A stretch of DNA of 64,000 nucleotides from Planctomycetota bacterium (GTDB lineage: Bacteria > Planctomycetota > UBA8742 > UBA2392), in assembly GCA_020638675.1 (NCBI GenBank), contig JACKID010000001.1, positions 2,243,261-2,307,260 of the forward strand, given 5' to 3'. A program made the position numbers and the translations under genes. Within the stretch, counting starts at the first letter, position 1. Each line of letters begins with the position of its first letter. The notes beneath the pieces are model-generated. The model saw nothing but the letters and a program-made list of their open reading frames with translations, did no database searches and was not told the origin of the DNA. This document shows, piece by piece, positions 7,688 to 62,647 of this stretch.

Positions 7688-7750
7688 GGGTTCCTCGCGC
7701 GCCATTATGGAAACGCAAAGCCCGGCCACAAGCAGAGATAAATCCGGGGG

Positions 7751-8059
7751 CTAGTCCGGCTCGTTCGCCCGGGGCTTCCAGACCTCCGGGTCGCGGGCCG
7801 CATGCACGACGCCGACCACCAGGATGCGCTCAGGCTCAACCCGATACCCGATGGAGTATGGGAAGCGCCTAAGTCGCACCCGGCGCATGCTGCCGCGTAC
7901 TTCCGCGTATGCCAGGGGGCTTGCCTTTAAGCGCGAGACCGCCTCCCGGAATGCAGCCTCAAATGCGGCCTCCAGGTGCGGCGACAGGGCCTGGTAATAA
8001 CTGCGGATCTCGGAGACATCCTGGACGACGCGTTTGTCGAACTCCAACGCGCGGGTCAT
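7751..8059 (-). CDS. ParE/RelE-family type II toxin
   Basis: 102 aa. The C-terminal YRVEPERILVVGVVHAARDP matches the ParE/RelE pattern. Its start overlaps the upstream small ORF's stop in an ATGA (8056-8059). Confidence 0.7.
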   Translation of the reverse strand: MTRALEFDKRVVQDVSEIRSYYQALSPHLEAAFEAAFREAVSRLKASPLAYAEVRGSMRRVRLRRFPYSIGYRVEPERILVVGVVHAARDPEVWKPRANEPD

Positions 8060-8304
8060 TCCGACCAGCCCAGTTCGCGACAGAACTCTCGCCAGCTGAG
8101 CGCTTGCTCAGGCTCGGCGGCACGGCGTTCAAGCGCTTCCCACGTCGGACCGCGGACTGAAGCGGGGTCGTCGCCGGCAAGAATGCTTTCCATGATCTCG
8201 CCCACCAGCTTCAGCCGGTTCTCGACGCTGAGCTTGAGGTAAAACTTGGATTCCGCCGCCTCTGCCATGGCTTTATTGAACCACGTTAGTCCAGCGCGTT
8301 CCAT
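8056..8304 (-). CDS. Putative antitoxin (addiction-module component) paired with the ParE-like toxin
   Basis: Small ORF ending ...KFYLKLSVENRLKLVGEIMESILAGDD... with 4-nt translational coupling to the toxin gene. The start is uncertain (ATG at 8304 or 8268). Confidence 0.5.
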   Translation of the reverse strand: MERAGLTWFNKAMAEAAESKFYLKLSVENRLKLVGEIMESILAGDDPASVRGPTWEALERRAAEPEQALSWREFCRELGWSE

Positions 8305-8585
8305 ACCTTGGGGCGGCGCCAATTCAACCGAACCGGCCGGGATGGCTATCCGTTTCAGTTGTTGAGGAAATCCGAACACGCTTCAGCAGGCTTCAGCAGG
8401 CATCGGCGGCACGGCATTTGATGCATGCGGGTTGTGGGCCGAATTCGGCCCCGGAAGCGCCCGTTTGCTACGGTGCGGACACCTTCCGGGGGCCGTCATG
8501 TTACCTGTTGGTAGCATTGCGGCTTCCGTGCAGTGGACTAGACTGCTTGGGTACCCCCGCCCGGGAGCTGAAACGAGGAGGCAAC

Positions 8586-10274
8586 ATGCAGCGCCCGAAT
8601 CATTTCCGCTGGACACTGATGCTGTTTGCAATTGCGGCCGCGTTCCTGGCCTTAAGCGTCGCGCCCGCCACGGTGCGCGCGGATGACGACTTCAAGTCGC
8701 TCAAGAAAGAGTATGAGCAGGCCAAGGCAGACGGCTCCCGCACTACCATGGGCCGCCTCGTCGACAAGATGGCCCGAACCAACGAAAAGGATGCGGCCAA
8801 GTACCTGCTGAAAGAGCTGTCCGAAGACCAGGCCGCCCACAAGCGCGGCAAGGCGGGGCTGCCCGGCGACATCCGCGACAAGATCGTCAACGCGCTCTCC
8901 AGCTTTACCGATGAAGACAGCGTGGGGCTGATCGGCAAGGCCGCGCTGGATCTCAAGAGCGACAAGGACCCGACGCTGGCGCTCGACCAGTTCGACTTCT
9001 TCAAGTCGCTGGCCCGCATGACCGGCGTGGCGCCCGCTGACAAGACCATTCGCGAAGCCCTGTCCGAGACCAAGAACCCGTTCATCAAGTGCGCCGCGCT
9101 TGAGGCCGTGCGCCAGGCCGGCGCCAAGCGCTTCGCGCCCGACGTCATCGCGATCCTGATGGAAGAGAACGAGGAGTGGATCAAGAAGTGGCTGATCGTC
9201 CCGATCAACACGCTGGCCTGCCTCGAAGACATCGTGGATCCCGCGGACAAGGAGACGGTCATCAAGGTCGTGGACGCGGTCGTCGCGTTCCAGGAACGCA
9301 CCACCTGCGCCGATGAACGCGTACGCTTCTTCGGCGGCAAGATGCTCCGCAAACTCACCGGCGAAATCGCCGACATGGAAAGCACCTATTACTGGAAGTG
9401 GTGGTCCGCGCAGATGAAGGCCGTCGGCGCCGTCGACAAGTCCAGCAAGCCCGAGGGCAAGCGCAGCAAGACCGCGGCCGTGCCGCCGGTGTTCGACGCG
9501 CAGCCCGTGGGCCGGCGCTTCGTGTTCGTGATCGACGTCAGCAAGAGCATGGAGATGCCGCTCAAGATCACGCTTGAAGAGATCGAGAAGCGCAAGAAGG
9601 AACGGGACGGCCCGGTCACCAAGGGCCCCAAGAAGGAAGAAGGCGGCGAAGATCAGGACCCGGCCGACAAGGATGCGGACAACCCGCTGCGCCAACTGCC
9701 GTGGAAGGACATCAGCACCAAGATCGAGCTTGCGCGTGAAGAGCTCTCGCGCGCCATCAAGACCTTCGTAGGTGACCGCCAGTTCGCAATCGTCACCTAC
9801 TCGACAGAAGTCGAAGTCATCACCGGCGGCTGGGTCCAGGCGACGCCCGACAACTGCGAGAAATGGTCCAAGGAAGTGAAGACACTTGAGCCCGTGTCGC
9901 TCACCAACATCCACGGCGGACTGATGCAGGCCCTGCGCATCTCCGACAAGGGGCTCGACGCCGAGGCGCCGTCCGTTGACCGCGACTGCGTGCTGACGGG
10001 CGCCGACAGCATCATCTTCCTGACCGACGGATGGGCAAGCTGGGACGACCAGAGCCAGACCAAGGTCAAGGACAAGCGCAACGGCCAGGACGCAAGCGTC
10101 GGCGACGGCCCCTTCATCTACGGCGAGGACATCTGGCCTGACATCCTGCGCCAGAACCTTTTCCGCAAGGTCATCATCAGCACAGTCGGCATCGGCATGC
10201 ACGACAAGGAACTGCTGAAGGCGCTGGCAGACAAAACCGGCGGCACCTACGTGGACTGGGGCTTCCCCGAGTAG
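8586..10274 (+). CDS. Secreted HEAT-like repeat / von Willebrand factor A domain protein (paralog 1)
   Basis: AGGAGG SD 6 nt before the ATG and a signal-peptide-like N-terminus (MQRPNHFRWTLMLFAIAAAFLALSVAPATVRA). MIDAS motif FVFVIDVSKSM, a downstream TNIHGGL threonine and an FLTDGWA aspartate. Its C-terminal ISTVGIGMHDKELLKALADKTGGTY is shared with the three paralogs. Confidence 0.8.
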   Translation: MQRPNHFRWTLMLFAIAAAFLALSVAPATVRADDDFKSLKKEYEQAKADGSRTTMGRLVDKMARTNEKDAAKYLLKELSEDQAAHKRGKAGLPGDIRDKIVNALSSFTDEDSVGLIGKAALDLKSDKDPTLALDQFDFFKSLARMTGVAPADKTIREALSETKNPFIKCAALEAVRQAGAKRFAPDVIAILMEENEEWIKKWLIVPINTLACLEDIVDPADKETVIKVVDAVVAFQERTTCADERVRFFGGKMLRKLTGEIADMESTYYWKWWSAQMKAVGAVDKSSKPEGKRSKTAAVPPVFDAQPVGRRFVFVIDVSKSMEMPLKITLEEIEKRKKERDGPVTKGPKKEEGGEDQDPADKDADNPLRQLPWKDISTKIELAREELSRAIKTFVGDRQFAIVTYSTEVEVITGGWVQATPDNCEKWSKEVKTLEPVSLTNIHGGLMQALRISDKGLDAEAPSVDRDCVLTGADSIIFLTDGWASWDDQSQTKVKDKRNGQDASVGDGPFIYGEDIWPDILRQNLFRKVIISTVGIGMHDKELLKALADKTGGTYVDWGFPE

Positions 10275-10341
10275 TCGCGCAACGGGCTGGGATTCGGGGC
10301 GGAGTCGTCGGTCGAAGTCACGGCCGCTAGAAGGAAATCGA

Positions 10342-11736
10342 ATGCACAGGCAACTGGTTCTGGCACTGGCTGCGGTCGCGCTGCTGTTTGCGCCGCTGGC
10401 CGTAACCCACGTGGATGCCCGCAAAGTCGGCCCGGTGCTGGTCAAGGACGACCCCAGCGAGGCGTTCGAGACCTTCAACAGCATGCTTCCGCTGGTCGTG
10501 AACGGCGACGACGCGGGCAATGCCGCGGTGCGCGAGGCGCTAGACGACAAGTCGCCGTGGATCGTGATCGGCGCCGTGGAAGCCGTCCGCCAGGGCGAAG
10601 TCAGCAAGAGCGGCAAGGGCAAGGTCTACCTGCCCGAAGTGCTCGCGCTGATGGATGAAAAGCACAAGAAGCTGCACAAGGAAGAGATCGTCACCGTCAA
10701 CGTGATCGCGTGCCTCGGTGCGCTCGCCGTGGTGGATACACCGCAGGCGCTGCAGGTCGTGCAGGCGATCGTCGACTGGCAGAAGTGGTCTGAAAACGAA
10801 GTCGTGCGCCTGCGCCACATGGCTGAAAAGGTGCTGTTCGACCTCACCGGCGACGACTGCACGCTCAAGGCGGAAACCGTAGGCTTCTGGGAGTGGTGGA
10901 TTCGCAACAAGGCCAACGCCCAGCCGGACAAGGCGCCCGAGAAAAAGAGCAAGACCGCACCGATCCTCTTCAAGGAGCCCGCGGTCGGCACCCGCATCTG
11001 CTTCGTGATCGATGTGTCCGACAGCATGAAGTGGCCGATCAACGAAGAGGATCTGCCCAAGATCAAGAAGCTCACGCCGCACCTGGACTGGGCCAAGATG
11101 CCCGAGCCCTGCAGTGCGATGGACCTCGCCAAGGCCGAGCTGATGCACTCCATCGACGCGCTGAAGCCCGGCGCGGAGAACGCCGACGAAAAGGACGGCA
11201 AGAGCACCAAGTGGAGCAAGAACGACCCGGAGCGCCGCTATTTCTCGATCATCACGTACTCGCAGGAGGTCGTGAACTTCAGCGGCGGCTGGATCGAGGC
11301 CAGCGAGAAGAACTGCAACATCTGGAAGGCCAAGGTCGAAGAACTCGAGCCCGACTCCTACACGAACATCCACGGCGCGATCCTCATGGCCATGGGGCTG
11401 CACGACAAGGGCGTCAAGACCGACAACCTTGAGCTCGACAAGGAGTGCGTGCTTACCGGCGCGCACACCATCGTGTTCCTCACCGACGGCTACGCGACCT
11501 GGAGCAACGACTCCACGGACCGCACGGCGCAGGACCAGTTCGGCAATCCCGTCGGCAACGGCGAGTACATCAGCCGCGAGAAACTGGTCGAGCTGGCTGT
11601 GCGCCTCAACCGCTTCCGCAAGGTGGTAATCAACACAGTCGGCATCGGCAATCACGACAAAGAGCTGATGCGCGACCTGGCCAAACAGACAGGCGGCAGC
11701 TACCAGAACTGGTACTGCCGCATCGTGTACAAGTAA
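10342..11736 (+). CDS. Secreted HEAT-like repeat / vWA domain protein (paralog 2)
   Basis: Signal peptide [42 protein letters not shown], then TNIHGAI, VFLTDGYATW and [26 protein letters not shown]. Confidence 0.8.
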   Translation: MHRQLVLALAAVALLFAPLAVTHVDARKVGPVLVKDDPSEAFETFNSMLPLVVNGDDAGNAAVREALDDKSPWIVIGAVEAVRQGEVSKSGKGKVYLPEVLALMDEKHKKLHKEEIVTVNVIACLGALAVVDTPQALQVVQAIVDWQKWSENEVVRLRHMAEKVLFDLTGDDCTLKAETVGFWEWWIRNKANAQPDKAPEKKSKTAPILFKEPAVGTRICFVIDVSDSMKWPINEEDLPKIKKLTPHLDWAKMPEPCSAMDLAKAELMHSIDALKPGAENADEKDGKSTKWSKNDPERRYFSIITYSQEVVNFSGGWIEASEKNCNIWKAKVEELEPDSYTNIHGAILMAMGLHDKGVKTDNLELDKECVLTGAHTIVFLTDGYATWSNDSTDRTAQDQFGNPVGNGEYISREKLVELAVRLNRFRKVVINTVGIGNHDKELMRDLAKQTGGSYQNWYCRIVYK

Positions 11737-11811
11737 CCCCGCAGCGCGCCGCCCCCTCGGCGCAAGCCCGCCACAGGCTCTGGGAGGAGGCTGGACGGGA
11801 CTGAGGAATCC

Positions 11812-13362
11812 ATGCAGATCCGCATCGCTCTGATCGCGGCGCTGGCGCTAATGCTGACGCCCGCCCTCCTCGTGCACGCGGGCAACAAGGACGTCGACAA
11901 CGCCCGCGGGGCATACCAGCAGGCACAGGATGAAGTCGCCCGCAAGGCAGCCCTCAACGCGCTGGTAGCGACACAGCACGAAGAGGCCGTGGATTTCATC
12001 GTCGGGCGTATCGCGCGCGAAAACGATGAGGTGAAACACGCAGAGTTCATGGACGCGCTCGCCGGCTTCAGCGCCGACAAGCCGCTCAAGGCGCTTCTCA
12101 AGGCGGCCGAGGAAGTCAAAAGCGAAGAGGACCACCAGCTCGCTCATCACCAGTGCGACCTGTTCACGGCGCTTGCGCGCAATCGCAAGTCCGACCTGCC
12201 CGAGAAGTCCCTTCGCAAGATGCTCGACGACCAGCGCATGAAGCCCTGGGCGACCCTGGCACTGGTGGAGGCCATTCGCGCGGCCGACGTGGCGGATGCC
12301 GGCACCGGTCGTCGCTTCATCGCTGAAGTACGCGCCCTGCTCGACAAGAAGCAGGCCAGGCGGCTGGCGTTCGAAATCGTGACCGTGAACGTGCTTGCCT
12401 GCCTGAAACAGTTGACGCCCAAGGACTCGCCCGCCGAGCGCAACGCCACGGTAAAGGCGGTGGTCGAATGGCAGGCCTGGAGCCACAACACGCAACCCCG
12501 CCTACAGGATATGGCGGACCGGGTGCTTCATCACCTGACCGGCGAAACCTGCACCCTCAATGATGAGACGCTTAAGTTCTGGCGCTGGTGGCTGGCAAAC
12601 AGCCCGGACCAGCCCGACAAGCCAAAGCAACAGGCGCGGGGCACGGCGACACTGTTTGACCAGCCGGCGCTCGGCGACCACATCGTCTTCGTGATCGACG
12701 TGTCCGACAGCATGAAGTACGACGTCACCGACGAAGGACGCGCCGCGATCCGAAAGAAGTCCGAGCACCTGGATTGGGACAAGATCAAGAGCAAGCTCGA
12801 CCTCGCCCGGCAGGAGCTGATCTACTCGATCAACCAGCTCAACCCCGGCAGCGACGCGCCGGACGCCCGACGCCCCCGGTTCGCCATCATCGCGTACTCA
12901 GACCGCATCTACGGCTGCACGAACGGCTGGCTGGTGGCCGACGACGCGGGCTGCAAAGAAGGCGTCGAAGCGGCCGAGAAGTTGGAGATCAAGTTCACCA
13001 CCAACATCCACGACGGGCTTGCGCGCGCCTTTGCGATTCACGATGGCGGCAACAAGGCGGACCACCCGGACACTACCGAGGAGTGTGTGCTGACGGGCGC
13101 GCACACGATCGTGTTCTTGACCGACGGCTTCGCGACGGCCAACGAGGACAAGAAGCTGCTGGAACCGGAGAACATCCGCGCCTCGATCCGTCGCCTGAAT
13201 CGCTTCCGCAAGGTGGTCATCAACACCGTCGGCATCGGCAATCACGACGACAAGCTGATGCCAGACCTGTCTGATGACTCCGGCGGCAAATACACAGACT
13301 GGACATTCAAAGAGAACGTCGAAGAGAAGAAGGGCAACTTCGGATTGGTCCCACGGCGCTAA
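11812..13362 (+). CDS. Secreted HEAT-like repeat / vWA domain protein (paralog 3)
   Basis: Signal peptide [39 protein letters not shown], then [17 protein letters not shown] and [26 protein letters not shown]. Confidence 0.8.
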
Positions 13363-51686: not shown

Positions 51687-51779
51687 GCGCTCACACGTTC
51701 ATAGGGAAGGGCCCGGGGTTGTCTCAGGTGGATGATTTGGGCACACTTGGCCCACCCCATCCGGAACAGGAACACAGGC

Positions 51780-52868
51780 ATGCTGAGTTATCGACTTTCT
51801 GTCGCGATGATGGCTGTCGGGCTGCTGCTGGCCGGCACTCTCTATGCGGACCGCATTTCGTACATCCAGGGCTCGGGTGCTAAAGCCGAGATGAAGATGG
51901 ACGAAGACATCACGATCACCGGCTGGAGCGCCTCCAAGGTCGACTACAAGACCGCCGACGGCAAGGCCGCGAGCGTGAAGTACAACGACATCCTGTCGCT
52001 CGACCGGCACTACGGCAGCATGAGCGCGCAGCTTTCCGAGGCAATGGACCTCATCGCAGCCGACCCGGGCGACGCGATCGCCGCGCTGGCCGAGATCGCG
52101 GCCAACGGCAACGCGCTTGACCGCGAGGAAGCGGCCTTTCTGCGCGCGAACATTCTCGACAGCGAAAGCTACGCCGACAAGGCACTCCTGGGCCAGGCCG
52201 TGAAGGCCTACCAGGACTACGTGAAGAGCTACAAGGCGGGCTACTTCGCACGCGAGGTATACCGGGGGCTCTCCAACGGCCAGTTGCGCTCGAATGATGT
52301 CAGCGGCGCGCGGGCGACTTTGAAGGGCATGGTTCGGGCCGACAGCGCGCTCGAGCGCGAAGGCAACCAGCTGCTGGGTGAGCTGGAGGCCGGCGAGGCC
52401 AAGTGGTCCGACGCGATCGCTGCGTTCAAGGCCGCGCAATCGTCAGCCAGCAGTGAGAAGGACAAGAACCACGAATACCTCGCCAAGGCGTGGGAGGGCT
52501 GGTGCACGCTCAAGAACGGCAACGCCGCCGCGGCCAAGACGCTGCTGGAGTCGGTGACGGACGACGACGGCTTCGACGACCCGAACAGCACGGTTGACGA
52601 GGCTGCTCTCGGTGTTGCGTACCCCGCCCTCGGTGATTGCTATTTCGAAGGCGACAACTTCCAGAAGGCCTACGACGCGTACGTCAAAGGTGCCTATTTC
52701 GCCTGGTGGTCGGCGGGAACGCGCGAAGGCTACTGCCTCGGGCAGGCCTACCTGTGCGCCAAGAAGAACGAGAGCACCGGCGACAAATGGAAGAAGCGCA
52801 TGACCAAGCTGCGCACCGCACTGGCGCTCGGCTTCCCGCGCGTGCTGGCGGAAGTGGACAAGCAGTAG
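51780..52868 (+). CDS. Secreted TPR-like repeat protein
   Basis: The ATG at 51780 gives a signal peptide (MLSYRLSVAMMAVGLLLAGTLYA). The rest is A/L-rich helical repeats. Confidence 0.55.
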   Translation: MLSYRLSVAMMAVGLLLAGTLYADRISYIQGSGAKAEMKMDEDITITGWSASKVDYKTADGKAASVKYNDILSLDRHYGSMSAQLSEAMDLIAADPGDAIAALAEIAANGNALDREEAAFLRANILDSESYADKALLGQAVKAYQDYVKSYKAGYFAREVYRGLSNGQLRSNDVSGARATLKGMVRADSALEREGNQLLGELEAGEAKWSDAIAAFKAAQSSASSEKDKNHEYLAKAWEGWCTLKNGNAAAAKTLLESVTDDDGFDDPNSTVDEAALGVAYPALGDCYFEGDNFQKAYDAYVKGAYFAWWSAGTREGYCLGQAYLCAKKNESTGDKWKKRMTKLRTALALGFPRVLAEVDKQ

Positions 52869-52928: not shown

Positions 52929-53903
52929 CTACTTCATCTCGACCTTGGTGGCCTCCAGCACGGTTTCACCGGACTTGGTCTTCTTCACCAGCTTGATGAG
53001 CGCGCCTTCGGAAATCCACTCGCTGGTTTCCGTTCCAGCCTTTTCGTCCTTGGACTCGAAAACGTCGCAGACGAACTCGCCGGCCGCGACCGTCAGCTTG
53101 ACGCCGGTCTTTGTTGGCTTGCCGTATTCCTTGTCCCAGGTTTCCTTGTCGGTCGTCTTGTCCACCGCCTTGGCGCCTTCGCTCGGGACGCCCGCTTCGT
53201 CACAGGCCACGGCCGACCAGGTCGCTGACTTGGCCTCAACGGCGCCGACCTTGCGCAACTGGTAGCTCTGGTCCCGCCCCGGGACGGTGATCTTGAGAAT
53301 GACGTAGTTGTCGGTCGCGGCATAGAAACGCGGCATCTCGGACTTCACGGTCTCGACCGGATCCGGGTCCTTGGATTCCGCACTGCCCTTCTTGTCACTG
53401 TGGAAGCTCACTAGCCAGACAACATCCTTGCCGTTCGTAACCTGCTTGACGACGCCGCCGCACGGGACGTCTTTGCAGTAGTACGCTTCCGTGGTCGCCT
53501 GGCCGATGGTCCACTTGGCTTTGTCGCACTTGAGTTCGATTTCGCCCAGGGTGAGCGTCTCCTCAGTCCACTCGACCTCTTTTTCCTTACCGTACGGCAT
53601 GCGGATCTGGATCTTGATGGAGGCCCAGTCGCGCGTCTTTTCCTGCTGCGCGGTCTGCTTGCCGTTGGCGAACATCGTGTGCGTGTACGTGATCTTGCCA
53701 GCGTTCACCCGGGTTACTTCGTCCTTGAAGGTGATCCCGTTGCCGAGTGAGTACTCGGCCCAGTCCCCCTTCTCGGCATCTTTCCAGGTGTTCCAGCCGT
53801 CCGCCCAGTCGCCTTCCTTGGCGTCGGCGTGAATCGCGGACTGCTGCCATGCAAGCAGTGCCAGCACGGCGCAAAGCATTCCTGCGCGAAAAAGTTGGTG
53901 CAT
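52929..53903 (-). CDS. Secreted paralog-family protein P5 (unknown C-terminal domain)
   Basis: GAGGAGGAGGA SD and a signal peptide. The C-terminus AGEFVCDVFESKD...SEWISEGALIKLVKKTKSGETVLEATKVEMK is homologous to the P1-P4 C-termini. Confidence 0.6.
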   Translation of the reverse strand: MHQLFRAGMLCAVLALLAWQQSAIHADAKEGDWADGWNTWKDAEKGDWAEYSLGNGITFKDEVTRVNAGKITYTHTMFANGKQTAQQEKTRDWASIKIQIRMPYGKEKEVEWTEETLTLGEIELKCDKAKWTIGQATTEAYYCKDVPCGGVVKQVTNGKDVVWLVSFHSDKKGSAESKDPDPVETVKSEMPRFYAATDNYVILKITVPGRDQSYQLRKVGAVEAKSATWSAVACDEAGVPSEGAKAVDKTTDKETWDKEYGKPTKTGVKLTVAAGEFVCDVFESKDEKAGTETSEWISEGALIKLVKKTKSGETVLEATKVEMK

Positions 53904-53969
53904 TCCTCCTCCTCCTCAAAAGGGGGTGCTGCGGCCCGGCACCAGTGTATACGGACGAGCTGCGCCCGC

Positions 53970-55310
53970 CTACTCCATCTTCAGCTCGGTCAGCTCGATT
54001 GTGTGCGGGTCCGCGCCTGCGACTGTGGTCTTCGCGAGGATGACAATCCCGTTCCAGCTCCAGCTTTCGGTGTGTCCGTAGGCTTCGCTAACGGAATACA
54101 GCGCGGGATATGTGCCCGCTGGCGTCTCGACCATCTGCTCGATTTCGCCCGCGTAGGCTGCCGGCTCTTCTTCGGCCTCGCCCGGAAAGGTGTGCTTCAA
54201 CGTGTCCTTGCCCGTCTCGTTTCCCGCGGCATCGGTGACGGTCATCGTGTACGTCGCCTCGGTCTCGGTCACCTCGGTGACTTCGACGCGAACGGTCCTT
54301 TCCGGCTTCTTTTCGCCGTTTGCGGTCGTGTAGCTGCTGGTGACGTAGTAGTTGCCCAGCGTGCGGTAGAACTGGTGCTCGTCGTGGCCGAGGTCAAACA
54401 CCTCCAGGTCCATGCTGTAGTTCTTCATCTTTGTCGCTACGGTCAGCCCGGGCCAGTAGACGCTGGTCCAGCTTTCGAAACCCGCGTCATTCATGTGGTA
54501 GCACTGGAAGTCGCCGGCCGGGCAGTTCTTGGTGACCATCTCCATGTTGGATGAGGTTCCACCACCCATGGCCATGGCGGGCGCACTGAAGCTCATTTCC
54601 GTGTCCTGGCTGAACATGGACTTGCCGGTGTTGTCGAGGACGGAGAGCGTGAATGTCGCGCCGTCCGCGCGTACTTCCTTGACCTTGTACTCCATCGACG
54701 TCGAGGTTTTCCCACCGCCGGCGCCTGAGGTGGTGCGGATGGTCCAGCGCCTGCCTTCCTTGCGATAGAGCTGGTACGGGTCCACATCCGCGGCGTCGAA
54801 CCAGGTGAGCTTGGAAATCTGAGTCGAGCTCGAAGCAATCTTCAACTGCTTCACGACCAGCGGGTGATAGTCAACGCTCACCCACGTGGTGGTCTGCAAC
54901 GTCTCCGTCTTCGTCACGTGCTTGCGGCACTTGAACTTGCGGAAGCCCATATCGAGGGTCTCTTCGGTCAGGCCGGCCGCGGCGTAGCCCAGCTGCTCCG
55001 GTGATGGTGACTTCAGGTCGACTGTGTAGCTCGACGACGTGTAGCTGTTGCCGCCATCGGACACCGTCTCGTCAGTGATTTTCGCCTTGCCGTCCTTGTA
55101 GCTGGTCACCTGCACCGTCCGCTTGCTGACTTCGGGGGACTCGCCGCGTGTCCAGTCCACCACGCGGTAAGACCAGTTGCGGCCCTTCTTCGCGTACACG
55201 TCCATCAGCTTGATCGTCGGGTCGAGTTTGACTTCCGGTTCGGCGTCCTGTGCAAGCACGGCCGGGAACGCGAGCAGCAGCAGGAAGGCGGACAGGATCA
55301 GGCGTTTCAT
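53970..55310 (-). CDS. Secreted paralog-family protein P4 (internally duplicated)
   Basis: GGGGAGAT SD before the ATG at 55310 and a signal peptide (MKRLILSAFLLLLAFPAVLA). The conserved DPYQLYRKEGRRWT motif is present, with an N-terminal second partial copy (KGRNWSYRVVDW). C-terminus ...SWSWNGIVILAKTT...IELTELKME. Confidence 0.6.
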   Translation of the reverse strand: MKRLILSAFLLLLAFPAVLAQDAEPEVKLDPTIKLMDVYAKKGRNWSYRVVDWTRGESPEVSKRTVQVTSYKDGKAKITDETVSDGGNSYTSSSYTVDLKSPSPEQLGYAAAGLTEETLDMGFRKFKCRKHVTKTETLQTTTWVSVDYHPLVVKQLKIASSSTQISKLTWFDAADVDPYQLYRKEGRRWTIRTTSGAGGGKTSTSMEYKVKEVRADGATFTLSVLDNTGKSMFSQDTEMSFSAPAMAMGGGTSSNMEMVTKNCPAGDFQCYHMNDAGFESWTSVYWPGLTVATKMKNYSMDLEVFDLGHDEHQFYRTLGNYYVTSSYTTANGEKKPERTVRVEVTEVTETEATYTMTVTDAAGNETGKDTLKHTFPGEAEEEPAAYAGEIEQMVETPAGTYPALYSVSEAYGHTESWSWNGIVILAKTTVAGADPHTIELTELKME

Positions 55311-55382
55311 GGCATCTCCCCTGGCGACGGCTTGACCAGTGTAGTCGCCCTGTCCGCAAGTCGCCAAATCATTGCGCAAATG

Positions 55383-55407
55383 AAAGCGGGCGCCCGAAGG
55401 CGCCCGC
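55383..55407 (-). terminator. Cloned terminator hairpin, copy 1 (after P3)
   Basis: AAAGCGGGCGCCCGAAGGCGCCCGC, with a perfect 9-bp stem and a CGAA loop. It is identical to copies at 56462-56486 and 57533-57557. Confidence 0.6.
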
Positions 55408-55422
55408 CTGAGTGTCGTTGCC

Positions 55423-56376
55423 CTAGTCTACGTATTCAATCAGTTCAGTCGTCATCGACCCGCTTTCCATCTTGACCAGCAGGCCGGGGTATTTTTTCGA
55501 CATCCAGGATTTCGTGCCGCTCACTTCCGTCACAGTGCACTCAAACTCGCCTGCCTCAACCTTGATCGTTTCCTCGGTCGTCTTGACCTCAGGTCTGTCG
55601 CCCCAATCGTCTTCCGCTTCGCGGAACTCAATCTCTGTCTCGTTTGCCGGCAAGCCTGCCATCGGCTTCCTGTCCTTGTCCAGAACCGTGTATGACACCG
55701 TGGCACTGTTGGCACCGACTTTGATGACTTCCGCCTTGAAGTACGAGATTATGTCGTCCATGCCCTCAAGCTTCGTAGTGGTCTTCGCAGTCCATTTGCG
55801 TCCCTTCTTTTTGTAGAGCACATACGGGTCAGGCTTGTCCTTGTCTACGGCATAGCCCTCGCCGAAGTTCACGTCCGGGCTCGCTTCCTTCAGCTTCGCC
55901 AACGTGTCGAACCAGCGGACGTCACCTTCTCCGCGCGCCCACGGGAACACAAGAATCCCGAAGCGCTTGTTGATCTTGTCTTCGGCGACGATGGCCGCCT
56001 GTTCTACGCGCTGCAAGCGCTTGGCCGCATAGACGGCGTCGTGGACTTTGTAGTTGTCGGTTTCCATCACGTCGCTTGCGACGTCGCAGCCCTTCTTGTC
56101 CCAGGATGCATGCAGCGTCTCGGGTGGACTGCCGTTCCGTGCGTAGCTGATACGCGCGCTGTCGCGCATCCCGAAAAGGACCTTCTCCGTCTTTTCGGCC
56201 GCGAGTTCTTTCTCGGCCTTTGCGAGCCTGTCTTCGAGTACCTTGACTCGTTCCTCCAGCTCCTTGAGCCGCTCTTCGACAGTCTTGGAGGTCGTTTTCT
56301 GAGCAACGGTCACTACCGGGGCGATCGCCAGCAACACGCCAACCAACGCCGCAATCACTGCCGTCCTGATCATCAT
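55423..56376 (-). CDS. Secreted paralog-family protein P3
   Basis: AGGAGA SD, signal peptide MMIRTAVIAALVGVLLAIAPVVTVA, and a coiled-coil stretch. Motifs DPYVLYKKKGRKWT and ...AGEFECTVTEVSGTKSWMSKKYPGLLVKMESGSMTTELIEYVD. Confidence 0.6.
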   Translation of the reverse strand: MMIRTAVIAALVGVLLAIAPVVTVAQKTTSKTVEERLKELEERVKVLEDRLAKAEKELAAEKTEKVLFGMRDSARISYARNGSPPETLHASWDKKGCDVASDVMETDNYKVHDAVYAAKRLQRVEQAAIVAEDKINKRFGILVFPWARGEGDVRWFDTLAKLKEASPDVNFGEGYAVDKDKPDPYVLYKKKGRKWTAKTTTKLEGMDDIISYFKAEVIKVGANSATVSYTVLDKDRKPMAGLPANETEIEFREAEDDWGDRPEVKTTEETIKVEAGEFECTVTEVSGTKSWMSKKYPGLLVKMESGSMTTELIEYVD

Positions 56377-56461
56377 CGTCTCTCCTGTGTGTTCGGAATG
56401 CTCCAAACAGCTTCGTGGGCATTAGAGTTGTGAGCTTGCTGAACAGCAAGTCTCAAAAAAG

Positions 56462-56486
56462 AAAGCGGGCGCCCGAAGGCGCCCGC
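56462..56486 (-). terminator. Cloned terminator hairpin, copy 2 (after P2)
   Basis: The identical 25-mer AAAGCGGGCGCCCGAAGGCGCCCGC, preceded on the plus strand by an A-run (a T-run on the minus strand). Confidence 0.6.
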
Positions 56487-56502
56487 TTGTCTTCACACTG
56501 CT

Positions 56503-57426
56503 CTAGTCTTCGTCGCCTTCGTTGAACTCAACCAGTTCCATTGCCTCGCTCTTGACGATGATGCCCGGGTACTTCTTCATCATCCAGGTCTTGCCGTCGT
56601 CGTAGCTGATCGCCTCAAACGTGCCCGCCTTGCACTCAATCTCCTTTTCGATCGACTTCGGCGCGGGCGGCATTTCGCCCGACCCACGCTCGGCCGTCTC
56701 GAACTTGAGCGCCGTCGTGTTGGCCGGGCCCATCGCCTGGCCGTTCATGTACATCTGCGTTTCCATGTCGCAGCCGTCATCGGTTACGTTCTTGATCGTG
56801 GTCTTCATCTTGAAGCCGCCGGTGATTTCGTACGTCCAGTTGCGGCCTTCCTTGCGGTAGGCTGCCCATGGATCGATCTCGCCGTCGCCCTCTTTGGCGT
56901 CTTTGCCCTCGCCTTCAGCTTCCTTGCCTTCCCCCGCGTCCGTGGTCTTGTCTTCGATCTTCACCTCCTTGTGCGCTTTCTTGAGCTCGTCAAGCGAGGC
57001 GTACCAGTCGACCTTTGAGTCACCGCTCGCCCACTCAAACGTCATGATCGCGAAGCCATCTTTGCCGGCCACGTCTTCCACTATCAGCGCTGCGCTTCCC
57101 CGCTTGTCAGTTACGGCGTAGACTTGGTCGTGCATCTTGGCGTAGTCACCCTTCAAGTCTTCCGCAGTCGCACCACACCCTTGTTTGCCCGCCTCGCCGG
57201 TCAGCGTTTTCGGTGCTTCACCGGATTTTGCATAGGCAACGCGAGCCAAGTCCCTCATCGATCCGATGATCTCCTCGCACTCCTTGCGGCGATCCTCCTG
57301 GCTGGTCTGCTTGGGCTTCACTTCTGCGGGCTCCGCCTCGTCCTTGGCTTCCTGTGCAAGTGGAGCCTGGGCAACAAACACGCACGCAACGAGTGCGGCC
57401 AAGAGCATCGTGAATGTGTTTTTCAT
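56503..57426 (-). CDS. Secreted paralog-family protein P2
   Basis: GGAAGGAAA SD and a signal peptide. Motifs DPWAAYRKEGRNWT and ...KAGTFEAISYDDGKTWMMKKYPGIIVKSEAMELVEFNEGDED. Confidence 0.6.
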   Translation of the reverse strand: MKNTFTMLLAALVACVFVAQAPLAQEAKDEAEPAEVKPKQTSQEDRRKECEEIIGSMRDLARVAYAKSGEAPKTLTGEAGKQGCGATAEDLKGDYAKMHDQVYAVTDKRGSAALIVEDVAGKDGFAIMTFEWASGDSKVDWYASLDELKKAHKEVKIEDKTTDAGEGKEAEGEGKDAKEGDGEIDPWAAYRKEGRNWTYEITGGFKMKTTIKNVTDDGCDMETQMYMNGQAMGPANTTALKFETAERGSGEMPPAPKSIEKEIECKAGTFEAISYDDGKTWMMKKYPGIIVKSEAMELVEFNEGDED

Positions 57427-57532
57427 AGTCAGTTTCCTTCCCTAGCGCGGCAGACGCCGCTCGTCAGTAAGGGCCAAATTAGACACCTGAGGGCATAGTG
57501 TGTCCATCTTCACAATTGATCCACCAAACAAA

Positions 57533-57557
57533 AAAGCGGGCGCCCGAAGGCGCCCGC
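57533..57557 (-). terminator. Cloned terminator hairpin, copy 3 (after P1)
   Basis: The identical 25-mer again, AAAGCGGGCGCCCGAAGGCGCCCGC, with a T-run on the minus strand (TTTTTTGTTTGG). Confidence 0.6.
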
Positions 57558-57581
57558 TCGGTACTGCTACCGGGAATTCAA

Positions 57582-58124
57582 CTATTCCTTGAACTCAACC
57601 AGCTCGGACTTACCGGCGGCCGACTCCATCTTGACCATCAGGCCCGGGTACTTCTTGGACATCCAGGTCTTGGTGCCGGAAACTTCGGTCATGGTGCACT
57701 CGAACTCACCCGCACCAACCTTCACGGTCTCGTCCTTGGTCTCAACCTTGGGTGCGGCATCCGCCGGAGCCGTGGTATCAGCCTTCGTGAACGGGATCTT
57801 CGTCGGCTCGGGCTCAGGCATGCCGGCCATGGGCTTCATGTCGGCGTCGAGAGTCCACATCTTGACCATCGCGTGATCGTCGGCCACTTCAACAACTTCG
57901 GTCTTGCTGTGGCTGATGTTTCCACTGAAGTCGTTCTTGACGACCCAGATGCGGCCCTTGGACTTGTAAAGAGCGTACGGGTCTGATGCGGTCTCGCCAC
58001 CGCAACCACCGCCACAAGCGGCCGTGTTGCCGCCGTTGCCGCCTGCAGCGTTGTTGCCGCCGCCACAAGCAACTGCCACGACTGCCACCAGGCAAAGAAG
58101 GCTGAAAAGGATGCTCTTACGCAT
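57582..58124 (-). CDS. Paralog-family lipoprotein P1 (shortest member)
   Basis: GGGAGAA SD and a signal peptide with a lipobox-like VAVAC, followed by a Gly/Asn/Ala-rich linker. Motifs DPYALYKSKGRIWV and ...AGEFECTMTEVSGTKTWMSKKYPGLMVKMESAAGKSELVEFKE. Confidence 0.6.
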   Translation of the reverse strand: MRKSILFSLLCLVAVVAVACGGGNNAAGGNGGNTAACGGGCGGETASDPYALYKSKGRIWVVKNDFSGNISHSKTEVVEVADDHAMVKMWTLDADMKPMAGMPEPEPTKIPFTKADTTAPADAAPKVETKDETVKVGAGEFECTMTEVSGTKTWMSKKYPGLMVKMESAAGKSELVEFKE

Positions 58125-58321: not shown

Positions 58322-58561
58322 ATGCCCATCTACGAATACCGCCACACAGGCAAGATCGGCGACACCTGCGAGGAGTCGTTCGAGATCTTTCAGAAGATGT
58401 CCGACGAATCGCTCACCAAGTGCCCGGTGTGCGGAAAGCCCGTCGAGAAGATACTGTCGAGATTCTCCGGCGGTGCCGATAAGATGGCACCCAGCCGCCT
58501 GAAAGAGCTTGGCTTCACGAAGCTCGTAAGACGCGACAAGGGCGTCTACGAAAAAGAGTAA
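58322..58561 (+). CDS. FmdB-family zinc-ribbon protein with a degenerate first Cys pair
   Basis: MPIYEYRH...C matches the FmdB signature MPxYEYRCxxC, but only one Cys remains in knuckle 1. The second knuckle CPVCGK is intact. Confidence 0.6.
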   Translation: MPIYEYRHTGKIGDTCEESFEIFQKMSDESLTKCPVCGKPVEKILSRFSGGADKMAPSRLKELGFTKLVRRDKGVYEKE

Positions 58562-58588: not shown

Positions 58589-59827
58589 ATGATGCGTCAG
58601 CGATTCGTCCTTTCCGCGTGCATGGCACTCTGCCTGGCCGCATGCGGCCAACCTGAAGAAGACACAGAGCCCGTCAAGCCCATCAAGGTCACCGTCGGCG
58701 TCGCGCTGGAAGAGCCGATGATTCCGACAGACCCGGCCGTCGACCCTGCCGTGGCCTATGACGGCACGCGCGTACACATGGTCTACAGCCAGTCCAACGG
58801 GACGCAGTACAATCTCATGTACACCCAGCGCCTCGGTGGCGGCAGCTTCACGGCGCCATCGCCGGTTTTCCCGGGCTCTACGGGCAACAGCCGCAACGCG
58901 CACGTGTTCATGGACAGCGCGGGAACGCTGCACATCGTCTGGGAAGAAGGCACAACGCCCAACCGCGAGATCTACTACGCCACGCGCACCAGCGGCGGCG
59001 TGCTGAGCACCCCGGTCGACATGACCAACACCAGCGAGGACGAGGCCGACCCGCGCGTGCACGTCGACAGCACCGGGCGCATCCACATCATCTGGACCGG
59101 CTCGACTGTCCCACCCAACCCCACAACGGCGATCTACTACAGGCGCACGCAGGGTTCGATCTTCCTGTCCGCGACGATTCTGCCCAAGGGCACAGGCAAC
59201 CAGCCGGCCGAAATGGGCGACATCTGCACCGACGCCGGCGACCGCATTTACGTGGTCTGGGCCGAAAGCGACGGGGCGTCCCGCAACATCCGCATGGTCC
59301 GCAGTGACGACAACGGGCAGAATTTCGGCGGTGTCGGCAGCGGCTTTGCCGCTAGCGGCTCGGTCGACATGACCCAGCCGCGCGTGCAGGGCGGCACCGA
59401 CGGCGAAGTCTTCCTCACGTTCGTGGGCCAGGCGCAGAACGGCGACCGGGCGTTGTTCGTCACATACACGCGCACGGGCGGCACGTTTGCCAGCCCGGGC
59501 CAACTGGTCAGCAGCCAGACGCTCGGCATACGCGACCCGGAAATCGCCGCCTTCGACCGCGGCTCGAACGACTACAACGTCTTCGTCGTCTGCAACGACG
59601 GCTCCACCGCGGGAGGAGCAATTCTACTGTTCAGCAGCCACGACAACGGCGAGAACTGGTCCGAGGACCCTGTGGACATGAGCCAGGGCAACTCCCAGCC
59701 CGTGACAAACGTTTCCCCGGCCGTGGCGCTGGACGACAACGAGGTCATCGTCAGCTGGGCGGCGCAGCCCCAGGGGGGTGGAATCGTCCGGACCTGGACC
59801 TCGACCAGCGACTACAGCTTGCCCTAG
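58589..59827 (+). CDS. BNR/Asp-box repeat lipoprotein (sialidase-like beta-propeller)
   Basis: Lipoprotein signal (LAAC). Asp-box SxDxGxxW motifs appear as SDDNGQNF and SHDNGENW. Repeated ...IYYA/IYYR... blades. Confidence 0.65.
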   Translation: MMRQRFVLSACMALCLAACGQPEEDTEPVKPIKVTVGVALEEPMIPTDPAVDPAVAYDGTRVHMVYSQSNGTQYNLMYTQRLGGGSFTAPSPVFPGSTGNSRNAHVFMDSAGTLHIVWEEGTTPNREIYYATRTSGGVLSTPVDMTNTSEDEADPRVHVDSTGRIHIIWTGSTVPPNPTTAIYYRRTQGSIFLSATILPKGTGNQPAEMGDICTDAGDRIYVVWAESDGASRNIRMVRSDDNGQNFGGVGSGFAASGSVDMTQPRVQGGTDGEVFLTFVGQAQNGDRALFVTYTRTGGTFASPGQLVSSQTLGIRDPEIAAFDRGSNDYNVFVVCNDGSTAGGAILLFSSHDNGENWSEDPVDMSQGNSQPVTNVSPAVALDDNEVIVSWAAQPQGGGIVRTWTSTSDYSLP

Positions 59828-59964: not shown

Positions 59965-61251
59965 ATGTCCACCGCGGTTGCCTCCGACCTGCTGACCGAA
60001 GTTACCGAGACAAAATCACCTGACATCAAGCACCTGCTGCAGCTGCGCGAGCAACTGCTGGCGGAGCCCGGGCTGCGCAAGACCGCAGACGCCGCGCTTG
60101 ATAACTGGACCGCATCACGCGAACGCCAGGGCGTGCTGCTGTACCTGCTCGGGCGCCTTGAGCGCTCGCTGACTATCCTCGAAACCGAGGCCGCCAGCGC
60201 ATGGAGCAAGCACTTCCTCGCGCGCGCCTACGTTGACTGCGGCTTCTACGCCAAGGGCGAAGAGCTGCTCAGCGGCGAGCTGAAGAACAACAAGGACCTC
60301 GAAGTCGTCATGCCCCTGTACCGCTCACAGGTCATGCAGGGCAAGTACGACGAGGCCGCGAAGACACTCAAGGCCTTCAAGGGCGATCACCCGTCCGTCA
60401 AGGCCGGCTTCATTGAGCTGAAGTACCGCGAAGGCGACCTCGAGACCGCGATGGATGAAATCGTCGCGCTTTACAACGATGTGCAGGACGACCGCATGGT
60501 CGCGTTCGTCTACGGCCAGATCGCGCAGGCCGCCGGTGACGACGAAGCCGCGCGCCGCGCCTATGAGCAGATCGCCCAGCACCCGCCGGTAGCGGTGGAC
60601 GTGTTGATTAACCTCGGCACGCTGTATGAAGACGAGTCGCACTGGGAACTCGCCATCAAGTGCTATGAGACGGTGCTGGCTGCATACCCGACGCACTCGC
60701 GCGCCCGCCTTTACAAGCGCGACGCGGAAGCCAGCAAGAACATGTACTACGACGAAGATCGTGAGCGCAAGGAAGACAAGCGCCTGCAGATCCTGCGCAC
60801 GCCGGTCACCGACTTCGAGCTTTCGGTGCGCTCGCGCAACTGCCTGCAGAAGATGAAGATCGACACGCTCGGCGACCTGATCCTGAAGACCGAGTCCGAG
60901 CTGCTGAGCTACAAGAACTTCGGCGAGACCAGCCTGCAGGAAATCAAGTCCATCCTCGGCTCCAAGGGCCTGCGACTGGGCATGCGCACCGAGGACGCGC
61001 TCGCCTACGCTCCGCCGGAAGACGGCAGCGCACCGGTCATCACGGGCGACGACCAGCTGGCGCAATCGATCGACGCGCTGGAGCTTTCCGTGCGCTCGCG
61101 TCGATGCATGGAGCGACTTGGTATCAAGACTGTCGGCGAATTGGTCGACAAGACAGAGGCCGAGCTTGTGGCCGCGCCGAACTTCGGCCAGACCTCGCTC
61201 AACGAAGTGCGCCAGAAGCTGGCCGAGATGAACCTGTCGCTCAAGGGCTAA
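59965..61251 (+). CDS. TPR-repeat protein with two tandem RNA polymerase alpha-subunit C-terminal-domain (alphaCTD)-like modules
   Basis: An N-terminal TPR-like helical region, then two HhH modules: ELSVRSRNCLQKMKIDTLGDLILKTESELLSYKNFGETSLQEIK and ELSVRSRRCMERLGIKTVGELVDKTEAELVAAPNFGQTSLNEVR. Confidence 0.6.
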   Translation: MSTAVASDLLTEVTETKSPDIKHLLQLREQLLAEPGLRKTADAALDNWTASRERQGVLLYLLGRLERSLTILETEAASAWSKHFLARAYVDCGFYAKGEELLSGELKNNKDLEVVMPLYRSQVMQGKYDEAAKTLKAFKGDHPSVKAGFIELKYREGDLETAMDEIVALYNDVQDDRMVAFVYGQIAQAAGDDEAARRAYEQIAQHPPVAVDVLINLGTLYEDESHWELAIKCYETVLAAYPTHSRARLYKRDAEASKNMYYDEDRERKEDKRLQILRTPVTDFELSVRSRNCLQKMKIDTLGDLILKTESELLSYKNFGETSLQEIKSILGSKGLRLGMRTEDALAYAPPEDGSAPVITGDDQLAQSIDALELSVRSRRCMERLGIKTVGELVDKTEAELVAAPNFGQTSLNEVRQKLAEMNLSLKG

Positions 61252-61325: not shown

Positions 61326-61345
61326 GAAGTCCCTGCGGAGCTGTG

Positions 61346-62647
61346 ATGTCGGATGCCACGGGCACAGTTACCGACCCTCTCGAATTCAGAGAGGGCCGCG
61401 GCGCCCTGGACTTTGGCCTGCTCGCCGTTCGCAACGGCTTGCTGACGGCCGAGCAGCTTGAAGATTGTCGCGCCAAGCAGGCGGCCAGCGCCAACCTCGG
61501 CGAAAACAAGACACTCAAGGACATCATCCTCGCCAGCCGCCTCATGACCGAGGAAGAGTGCCTGCGCGTCGAGCGTGCGCAGCAGCACCTGACGCAGGAC
61601 CGCGAGCGCAAGCAGGACCTCAAGTTCAAGGGCTACGAGATCATCAGCACGCTCGGTGAAGGCGGGCTGGGCAGCGTGTTCAAGGCGCGCCAGGTCAGCA
61701 TGAACCGGCTCGTCGCGTTCAAGGTGCTGCACAACCAGTGGATCAGCGACGACGAGTTCCGCAAACGCTTCGTGCTTGAGGCCCGCATCGTCGGCAAGCT
61801 GAGCCACCAGAACCTGATTCAGGTCTACGACGTCGGGCGCGAGGCCGACTACTACTACTTCAGCATGGAGTTCGTCGACGGGCGTACGGTCGAAGACCTC
61901 GTGCGTGAGGCCCCGCGCAAGCAGATGGAAGTCGCGCGCGCCGTGGACATCTGCATCCAGACGCTGCGCGCGATCAACTACTACAAAGACTTCGACATCG
62001 TCCACCGCGACATCAAGCCCAGCAACATCATGATCACGCGCTCGGGCCTGGTGAAGCTGGGCGACTTCGGCTTCGTGAAGAGCAAGCTGGACAAGGAGCT
62101 GGGCTACGAGGGCATGGTGCTCGGCACACCGGACTACATCGCGCCCGAGCAGGCCATGGGCAAGGAAGACGTCGACTATCGCGCCGACATCTACAGCATG
62201 GGCGCGACGCTGTACCACATGCTCACCGGGCGTCCGATGTACGACGGCACGCCCAGCAAGGTCATGCTCGCGCACACGCGCACGCCAATGCCGGACCCGC
62301 GCACGTATCGCCCCAGCCTGGGCGACGACGTGGTCAACGTGCTGCAACGCATGCTGGCGAAAGACCCCAACCAGCGCTACGCGAACATCAACAGCCTGTT
62401 CGCCGACCTCGAGGCACTGCGCGATGCCCACAAGGCCAAGGCCGCAACGAAGTACGAGATCGGCAAGAGCAGCATCATGCGCGCGCTGAACATCGAAAAG
62501 AGCCGCCACAATGAGCTGGCCGAGCGCATCAAGACCGCCGAAGCCAAGGCCGACGCCGCCTCCGCCGCGGCAAAGCTGGCCTGGGGAGTGGCCGCCGGCG
62601 CGGTTATCGCGGCGCTGACCTTCCTGATTCTCTGGCTGGCTACGTAG
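61346..62647 (+). CDS. Hanks-type Ser/Thr protein kinase with C-terminal TM anchor
   Basis: GGAG SD before the ATG at 61346. Kinase motifs present: GEGGLGSV, AFKVL, HRDIKPSNIM, DFGFV, and an APE-like APEQ. A C-terminal hydrophobic helix. Confidence 0.85.
   Translation: MSDATGTVTDPLEFREGRGALDFGLLAVRNGLLTAEQLEDCRAKQAASANLGENKTLKDIILASRLMTEEECLRVERAQQHLTQDRERKQDLKFKGYEIISTLGEGGLGSVFKARQVSMNRLVAFKVLHNQWISDDEFRKRFVLEARIVGKLSHQNLIQVYDVGREADYYYFSMEFVDGRTVEDLVREAPRKQMEVARAVDICIQTLRAINYYKDFDIVHRDIKPSNIMITRSGLVKLGDFGFVKSKLDKELGYEGMVLGTPDYIAPEQAMGKEDVDYRADIYSMGATLYHMLTGRPMYDGTPSKVMLAHTRTPMPDPRTYRPSLGDDVVNVLQRMLAKDPNQRYANINSLFADLEALRDAHKAKAATKYEIGKSSIMRALNIEKSRHNELAERIKTAEAKADAASAAAKLAWGVAAGAVIAALTFLILWLAT

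Follow-up and report, generated by a model that had tools for sequence, protein, structure and literature searches.

The window analyzed here is a 64,000-nucleotide stretch of an uncultured Planctomycetota genome (contig JACKID010000001.1, positions 2,243,261 to 2,307,260), and it carries an array of five consecutive genes, P1 to P5, whose products have eight all-beta barrels of about 135 residues each. It is well supported that this array encodes a lineage-specific set of Sec-exported cell-envelope proteins of an uncultured Planctomycetota clade. The position of the barrel is likewise well supported: it is a highly divergent branch of the DUF3108-like/YmcC-fold group within the LolA-like superfamily, and not a new fold.

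Five exported proteins built on one domain

A preliminary description of this DNA, made from the letters alone, reported five tandem minus-strand genes between 52929 and 58124, each with a Shine-Dalgarno site and a signal peptide. All five open reading frames are present (Table 1), and the purine-rich sites GGGAGA, GGAAGGA, AGGAGA, GGGGAG and GAGGAGG stand one before each start codon. Every protein begins with a hydrophobic signal sequence. The lipobox proposed for P1 (VAVA-CGGG) is confirmed by 49 orthologues, in which A19-C20-G21 is invariant. On these sequence features the array proteins are firmly predicted to be exported, and P1 to be lipid-anchored. P1 is 100% identical to H6839_09925, an NCBI entry from a Planctomycetes metagenome-assembled genome (MAG).

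Two sequence blocks had been noted in all five proteins, the second of them as part of a C-terminal module of about 60 residues. Both blocks are real, but they are the first and last strands of a longer domain, which starts with DPYxLYKKxGRxW and ends in an ELVEF strand a few residues before the stop (the final block lies within 10 residues of it, as described). A domain profile of 137 positions, built from P1-type orthologues only, matches P1 once (E 2.3e-61, with P1 itself part of the profile), P2 once (E 2.8e-37), P3 once (E 2.3e-53), P4 in three separate copies (E 1.6e-12, 3.8e-26 and 5.1e-10) and P5 in two (E 5.2e-5 and 7.3e-5), and the matches mostly cover most of its positions. Comparison of a P1/P3-type profile with a P5-orthologue profile (C-terminal copy) by hhalign gave a probability of 93.6% (E 2e-7). 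Given these separate matches and the hhalign link, the shared unit is therefore a domain of about 135 amino acids (aa). Pairwise identity among its eight copies ranges from 14% to 54%. The similarity is positional and not compositional, as had been argued, with profile matches across P2-P5 and both blocks in register in a five-way alignment. The internal duplication proposed for P4 proved to be a set of three copies, and P5, which had been credited with both blocks, holds two degenerate copies without a clear first block. The general picture of a tandem array of exported paralogues with one common module stands.

Conserved residues of the P1 motifs among orthologues are W60, W154, G57, K165, E174 and L175. 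The AGEFEC...KKYPGL block is nearly identical in P1 and P3, yet its coding DNA differs between the two at many synonymous sites, and the conservation of the protein block therefore reflects constraint, that is, purifying selection. Recent gene conversion between P1 and P3 was considered as a cause of the near identity, and is ruled out by the same synonymous differences.

A far-diverged relative of the DUF3108 barrels

An AlphaFold2 (AF2) model of P1, computed from a 49-sequence alignment, is a nine-strand all-beta domain with a predicted local distance difference test (pLDDT) score above 90 over about residues 47-180. Structure comparison of this model lists MucB and RseB (score 6.9), TTHA1012 (6.9) and VioE (6.4), with further matches to CT021, YmcC (6.2), LppX, several LolA and LolB, and LprG; in a Foldseek search the first nine places are all MucB/RseB, with probability 0.99-1.0. 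The module has both the YmcC-like beta-barrel of the solved DUF3108_like and DUF3108 members and the unclosed or partly closed antiparallel beta-barrel that characterizes the LolA-like superfamily.

Weak sequence signals lead to the same families. Against 177,635 distinct PDB sequences at E<=10, the family profile returned a single sequence, that of 4fvs (BDI_3050 of Parabacteroides distasonis), aligned on the motif ESITTPAGTFDCAKV, the counterpart of AGEFEC; the P1-only profile returned noise alone (urocanase, parvovirus capsid protein, interferon gamma). In Pfam and NCBIfam searches of the five proteins, no curated model recognized the shared domain at its cutoff. PF21347 (DUF3108_like) matches P4 below threshold (19.6 bits, E 8.7e-4, for a gathering cutoff of 27 bits) and P3 more weakly still (11.6 bits, E 0.25), and has no match in P1, P2 or P5. 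Among 90 diverse relatives, however, DUF3108_like matches 18 at E<=0.01 (best 1.1e-6) and DUF3108 (PF11306) matches 7 (best 3.7e-7). By extrapolation from its E-value we infer that the best of the former, at 1.1e-6, has about 29 bits and would pass the PF21347 cutoff. The LolA, LolB, MucB_RseB and LppX_LprAFG models have no match at E<=1 in the five proteins, and are not among the 22 families matched by the 90 relatives.

As structure and sequence signals converge, we therefore place the module as a far-diverged DUF3108-like/YmcC-fold member of the LolA-like superfamily, and the view of it as an unrecognized, unprecedented domain has to be given up. The preliminary description had named a known family with an assigned function as the finding that would count against it. 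This has come about by half, in that the module maps weakly to a known DUF, but to one that has no assigned function. DUF3108 has been described just as beta-barrel proteins with the YmcC fold (PMC4364669), and the literature on DUF3108, on 4FVS/BDI_3050 and on LolA-like proteins together with Planctomycetes yielded no functional information.

Several points weigh against this placement and the functional analogy drawn from it below. None of the window proteins reaches a curated family cutoff (P4 falls short of that of PF21347), so the homology rests on structure together with weak sequence signals. Foldseek also returns closed barrels, such as the FABP-like UnaG and nitrobindin, at E 0.15-0.4. 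At 135 aa the array barrel is smaller than LolA (about 180 aa), and it lacks the LolA helical lid. Finally, no lipid-transport, Lol or Lpt genes are found nearby, nor any Rse partners.

A separate Pfam match, of RE_LlaMI to residues 35-96 of P5 (53616-53801), just exceeds its cutoff (25.2 versus 25 bits, E 1.4e-5). We judged it spurious because it covers only 61 of 266 model positions and lies in an exported protein; the W/D/G-rich first strands of P5 have almost certainly given rise to a false match.

Table 1. Coordinates of the array genes, their domains, terminators and neighboring genes. Positions are those of the window except in the row for related loci.
Feature	Position	Strand	Description
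P1	57582-58124	-	180 aa: lipoprotein signal peptide, linker, one barrel domain
P1 barrel domain	57585-57989	-	Residues 46-180; profile search, AF2
P2	56503-57426	-	307 aa: signal peptide, pilin-fold N-domain, linker, one barrel domain
P2 pilin-fold N-domain	56932-57294	-	About residues 45-165; homology to P3
P2 barrel domain	56506-56880	-	Residues 183-307; profile match
P3	55423-56376	-	317 aa: signal peptide, charged helix into pilin-fold head, one barrel domain
P3 helix and pilin-fold head	55822-56295	-	Modelled residues 28-185
P3 barrel domain	55426-55836	-	Residues 181-317
P4	53970-55310	-	446 aa: signal peptide, three tandem barrel domains
P4 barrel domains	54810-55217, 54393-54788, 53973-54389	-	Three profile matches
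P5	52929-53903	-	324 aa: signal peptide, two degenerate barrel domains
P5 barrel domains	53397-53807, 52932-53345	-	Two profile matches
Terminator hairpin after P1	57534-57559	-	GCGGGCGCC-TTCG-GGCGCCCGC, then T run
Terminator hairpin after P2	56463-56488	-	Identical to hairpin after P1
Terminator hairpin core after P3	55388-55405	-	Same 18-nucleotide palindrome
Terminator hairpin after P5	52885-52914	-	Different sequence, 13-bp stem
Terminator palindrome in relatives	L001 10562-10579, L006 3078-3095, L008 8442-8459, L013 6338-6355		
TPR-like protein gene	51732-52868	+	Exported, 378 aa
Zn_ribbon_8 gene	58322-58561	+	79 aa, FmdB-type (CxxC...CxxC)
Lipoprotein gene	58589-59827	+	Exported, 412 aa, BNR-like
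TPR/RpoA-CTD protein gene	59965-61251	+	428 aa
Ser/Thr kinase gene	61343-62647		C-terminal transmembrane helix
MoxR-type ATPase gene	6578-7729	-	AAA+

A Planctomycetota family with a C-terminal module

Searched exhaustively with HMMER, 1.84 billion cluster representatives (50% identity clusters, metagenomes) yielded 1187 proteins at E<=1e-3, of which 301 are at <=1e-10 and 90 at <=1e-30. Searching for homologues with the eight-unit alignment returned P1-like proteins alone and did not widen the family. All members with a source name come from Planctomycetes/Planctomycetota MAGs, and the public records that we met are all annotated as 'hypothetical'. Counted over 209 family proteins, the module occurs once in 132, twice in 40, three times in 34 and four times in 3, and in 203 of the 209 no more than 15 residues lie between the end of the last copy and the C-terminus. 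N-terminal to it stand a lipoprotein leash alone, more copies of the module, a pilin-fold domain or EF-hand arrays, the last in 26 of the 90 relatives (for example P0063, P0066-P0068, P0071 and P0072).

Such a terminal position, in proteins that are all exported, would also suit a sorting or secretion tag recognized by a dedicated system of the type IX secretion system (T9SS) C-terminal domain (CTD), PEP-CTERM/exosortase or LPXTG/sortase type, and the preliminary description had suggested substrates of this kind. We give that reading the lowest probability of all those considered here. The module is a folded, highly charged unit of 135 aa without a terminal hydrophobic helix or known motif. 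P4 and P5 contain it in tandem within the chain, and P1 has no other globular part. In fold it agrees with ligand-binding barrels and not with the T9SS CTD beta-sandwich. No T9SS CTD, PEP-CTERM or LPXTG model of Pfam or NCBIfam matches, and a scan of 28 window proteins and of the genes next to relatives found nothing that encodes a sortase, an exosortase or a secretion system.

The N-terminal parts had been described as divergent. They do vary across the array, but residues from about 45 to 170 are homologous between P2 and P3, and this homology extends to about a dozen relatives; because these two proteins have a second domain in common, their N-termini are not simply divergent. The AF2 model of this P2/P3-type domain (pLDDT 90.5) has a helix of 49 residues that packs against a sheet of four strands, which is the pilin fold of an alpha-1 helix on an antiparallel sheet. 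The N-terminal half of the helix is charged, and in P3 it has coiled-coil heptads. A class III signal (G-(F/M)-T-L-x-E) is lacking, as the N-termini of P2 and P3 (MKNTFTMLLAALVACVFVAQAPLAQE and MMIRTAVIAALVGVLLAIAPVVTVAQK) are without the Gly-1/Glu+5 motif, and no N_methyl or pilin model of Pfam matches the domain. The coiled coil of P3 and the Gly/Asn/Ala linker of P1 had both been recognized correctly from the sequence. The P1 linker, between signal peptide and barrel, is disordered (AF2 pLDDT <50), and the linker between N-domain and barrel in P2 is acidic and composed of Lys/Glu/Gly.

Within the P1 leash (58004-58067, minus strand), a lipobox-like A-C-G-G-G recurs (VACGGG ... AACGGGCGG), and the second Cys with its following Gly run is kept in the orthologue consensus. 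This Cys could be a partner of the one conserved in the barrel (in AGEFEC), or else a remnant of a duplication.

Conserved gene order in eight other genomes

The neighborhood is collinear in eight other MAGs, at nine distinct loci if L007 is counted, which holds a second array type alone and not the main array. The locus search used a tight alignment and covered close relatives rather than the weak tail of the family (E 1e-10 to 1e-3). The order on the P1 side is aroA, a Ser/Thr kinase gene, the gene for a tetratricopeptide repeat (TPR)/RpoA-CTD protein, a 412-aa lipoprotein gene, a Zn-ribbon gene and then the array, beyond which follow a gene for a 378-aa TPR-like protein, pyrF and mraZ. The array itself runs from P1 through zero to two genes of the P2/P3 type to the three-copy P4 and the two-copy P5. 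At locus L001 the array block has the opposite orientation with respect to pyrF and aroA, and L006 is a short contig that reaches only from the TPR/RpoA-CTD gene to a P2-type gene. Three-copy P4 orthologues and two-copy P5 orthologues are each found at seven other distinct MAG loci, and the P2/P3-type gene is absent from four MAGs, single in four and double in the window. Since the whole region is syntenic in the clade, linkage to the flanking genes is uninformative on function.

Between MAGs, array proteins are 33-69% identical and flanking proteins 47-94%. The array proteins therefore evolve faster than their flanks, yet they do so as one-to-one orthologues in a fixed order. This lower identity, together with a number of P2/P3-type genes that varies from 0 to 2, could be read as the mark of hypervariable adhesins or decoys shaped by diversifying selection, one of the interpretations first put forward. 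We think it improbable: the same genes stand in the same order in the eight other Planctomycetota MAGs, the motif residues listed above are conserved, and the synonymous differences between the P1 and P3 blocks point to purifying selection. Conserved orthology, the internal tandem copies and the lack of sortase or secretion genes among the window proteins thus disfavor the diversifying and the sorting-tag readings alike. The order and content of the array fit a multi-protein set that is conserved as such, and not a family of hypervariable proteins or of sorting tags.

A second conserved array type, with two two-copy proteins followed by a closing protein of one head and one copy, is found at L007 (5066-8402) and L014 (5906-9560). 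The head of the closing protein in L014 is an EF-hand array.

The G+C content from 54001 to 58000, which spans P1-P4, is 58-60%, versus 62-66% in most of the window. This probably reflects the Lys/Glu/Thr/Met-rich composition of the proteins; foreign origin seems unlikely in view of the conserved synteny.

Orthologous terminators and likely transcription units

An 18-nucleotide palindrome with a UUCG-type loop, GGGCGCCTTCGGGCGCCC, occurs three times in the 64 kb (0.03 expected), solely at positions right after P1, P2 and P3. Other MAGs have this terminator after P1- and P2-type genes, either exactly or with compensatory stem changes, and the genomes that keep it encode proteins just 40-70% identical. 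A genome-wide repeat element was considered as an explanation, and is ruled out by the three sites in 64 kb, each after P1, P2 or P3. As judged from these letters, the shared hairpin is a predicted strong intrinsic terminator that has been conserved orthologously. The gap between P4 and P5 is 66 nucleotides and has no hairpin, so these two genes are probably co-transcribed. Given the hairpins after P1, P2 and P3 and none between P4 and P5, the likely units are therefore P1, P2, P3 and P4-P5.

Possible functions of the barrel set

For the explanation as a whole, in which the array is a set of divergent LolA-like envelope barrels predicted to bind a hydrophobic ligand, we consider the chances slightly better than even. 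In the part of it that is well supported, P1 is a lipoprotein with one barrel, tethered to the membrane through a flexible, Gly-rich leash; the soluble proteins P4 and P5 have three and two barrels; and P2 and P3 are optional members with a pilin-fold head on a single C-terminal barrel. By analogy of fold with LolA/LolB, LppX/LprG and the RseB/MucB N-domain, each barrel probably accommodates an acyl chain or some other envelope ligand of hydrophobic or amphipathic nature, for which a lipid, a lipoprotein anchor and a glycolipid are candidates. The proteins could then act as binders, carriers or tethers of this ligand, in the periplasm or at the membrane surface, and the heads at the N-terminus, which are pilin-like in this array and EF-hand arrays in relatives, may add a second, protein- or Ca2+-dependent interaction.

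The Met content of the P1, P2c and P4b barrels is 6.7-7.6%, compared with 0.9-3.5% in neighboring proteins. Such Met-rich barrels are weakly compatible with a flexible hydrophobic pocket, and could equally hint at soft-metal binding. The proteins would in the latter case be periplasmic Cu(I)/Ag(I) binders, that is, Met-rich small beta-barrels like those of CusF/CopC type, with an MxxMxxM loop. A second point in its favor, next to the Met content, is that about 50-65% of P1-type orthologues retain the P1 loop M96-K-P-M99-A-G-M102 and the H84/M86/M89 (DDHAM) strand. Conservation at these Met and His positions is, however, only by half, and P3, P4a, P4c and P5 lack them; the window protein scans found no cop, cus or other metal-resistance genes nearby, and the fold matches are not CusF or CopC. 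We therefore consider metal binding very unlikely, though a shade less so than the sorting tag.

The barrels could also be protein-protein assembly modules and not ligand carriers. P1 would then anchor a complex to the membrane, P4 and P5 with their five barrels would form a hetero-oligomeric envelope or surface structure, and single-barrel fusions would dock by the C-terminal barrel and display pilin-like or EF-hand heads. Such a structural scaffold would suit the C-terminal position of the module beneath varied N-terminal parts (pilin-fold, EF-hand, coiled coil), the copy number per gene fixed across MAGs at one, three and two, the second conserved array type, and the long coiled-coil-like helix in P3. 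The fold relatives of the module are mostly monomeric ligand binders, however, and the P1 form, a leash with a barrel, is the most widespread, which suggests that the barrel has an activity of its own. We hold the scaffold to be a doubtful but serious alternative to ligand binding.

A more ambitious reading is that the conserved set P1-P4-P5 (six barrels, one of them lipid-anchored), with the optional headed members, forms a Planctomycetota-specific envelope machine. We regard this as unlikely. One form that it could take is a periplasm-spanning chain of LolA-like barrels moving lipids or lipoprotein anchors between the membranes, with the heads providing Ca2+-dependent or filament-like attachment; if true, a known fold would here have given rise to a new type of system for trafficking or scaffolding in the envelope.

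The cell envelope of Planctomycetota is unusual and little studied, and its biogenesis is poorly understood. With its six to eight LolA-like barrels, some of them fused to pilin-fold or EF-hand heads, the conserved, operon-like set is a concrete candidate for the handling of lipids or lipoproteins in the envelope, or for a scaffold at the surface. A family without a curated sequence model now has a fold, domain boundaries and a superfamily home, and a new Pfam entry in the LolA/DUF3108 clan would be justified. The fold itself is a known one, its nearest families are without function, and a new biochemical principle is not indicated.

Neighboring genes

The Zn_ribbon_8 gene is divergent from P1, and its product is 74-86% identical, at the same position, in eight related MAGs. 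The 412-aa lipoprotein has propeller-like signals and a sub-threshold match to the 'PDIAV motif lipoprotein' model of NCBIfam (1e-13). Seven MAG loci reach past both ends of the array, and there this lipoprotein and the 378-aa TPR-like protein flank it. In the 428-aa protein, TPR repeats stand together with two RNA polymerase alpha C-terminal domains (PF03118, 1.6e-44), and its gene is followed by that of the Ser/Thr kinase. At the other end of the window, the MoxR-type gene is followed by three large plus-strand genes (to 13362), two of which (8418-10274 and 11812-13362) have weak von Willebrand factor A (VWA)-domain matches; the region from 6578 to 13362 resembles an envelope cluster of the BatA/MoxR-VWA type.

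Comparison with known systems

The closest likeness is to the putative lipoprotein BDI_3050 (4fvs), which we take to be a PF21347 member. It shares with the array barrels an exported or lipoprotein context, an all-beta barrel and the motif T-x-PAG-x-F-x-C. The DUF3108_like and DUF3108 families have the YmcC-like fold (for example 3FZX) that is also found in the array module. These reference families are themselves without established function (PMC4364669). The array unit, at about 135 aa, compares with about 200 positions in the DUF3108-group model and a 214-aa chain in 4fvs. Unlike BDI_3050 and the DUF3108 proteins, the module is repeated in tandem, is spread over arrays of several genes, stands in fusion with heads of the pilin fold or of EF-hands, and is, by its named members, restricted to Planctomycetota.

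With the LolA-like superfamily (LolA/LolB, the RseB/MucB N-domain, LppX/LprG and VioE) the array proteins share a periplasmic or lipoprotein location, whereas there is no sequence similarity (identity 4-10%). A hydrophobic cavity holding an acyl chain is a trait of LolA-like proteins, and is putative for the array barrels. Type IV pilins and the pseudopilins of type II secretion systems have a class III prepilin signal and use the first half of alpha-1 as a membrane anchor; P2 and P3, in contrast, have ordinary Sec-type signal peptides, this half of the helix is charged in both and coiled-coil-like in P3, and the pilin-fold domain is fused to a C-terminal barrel.

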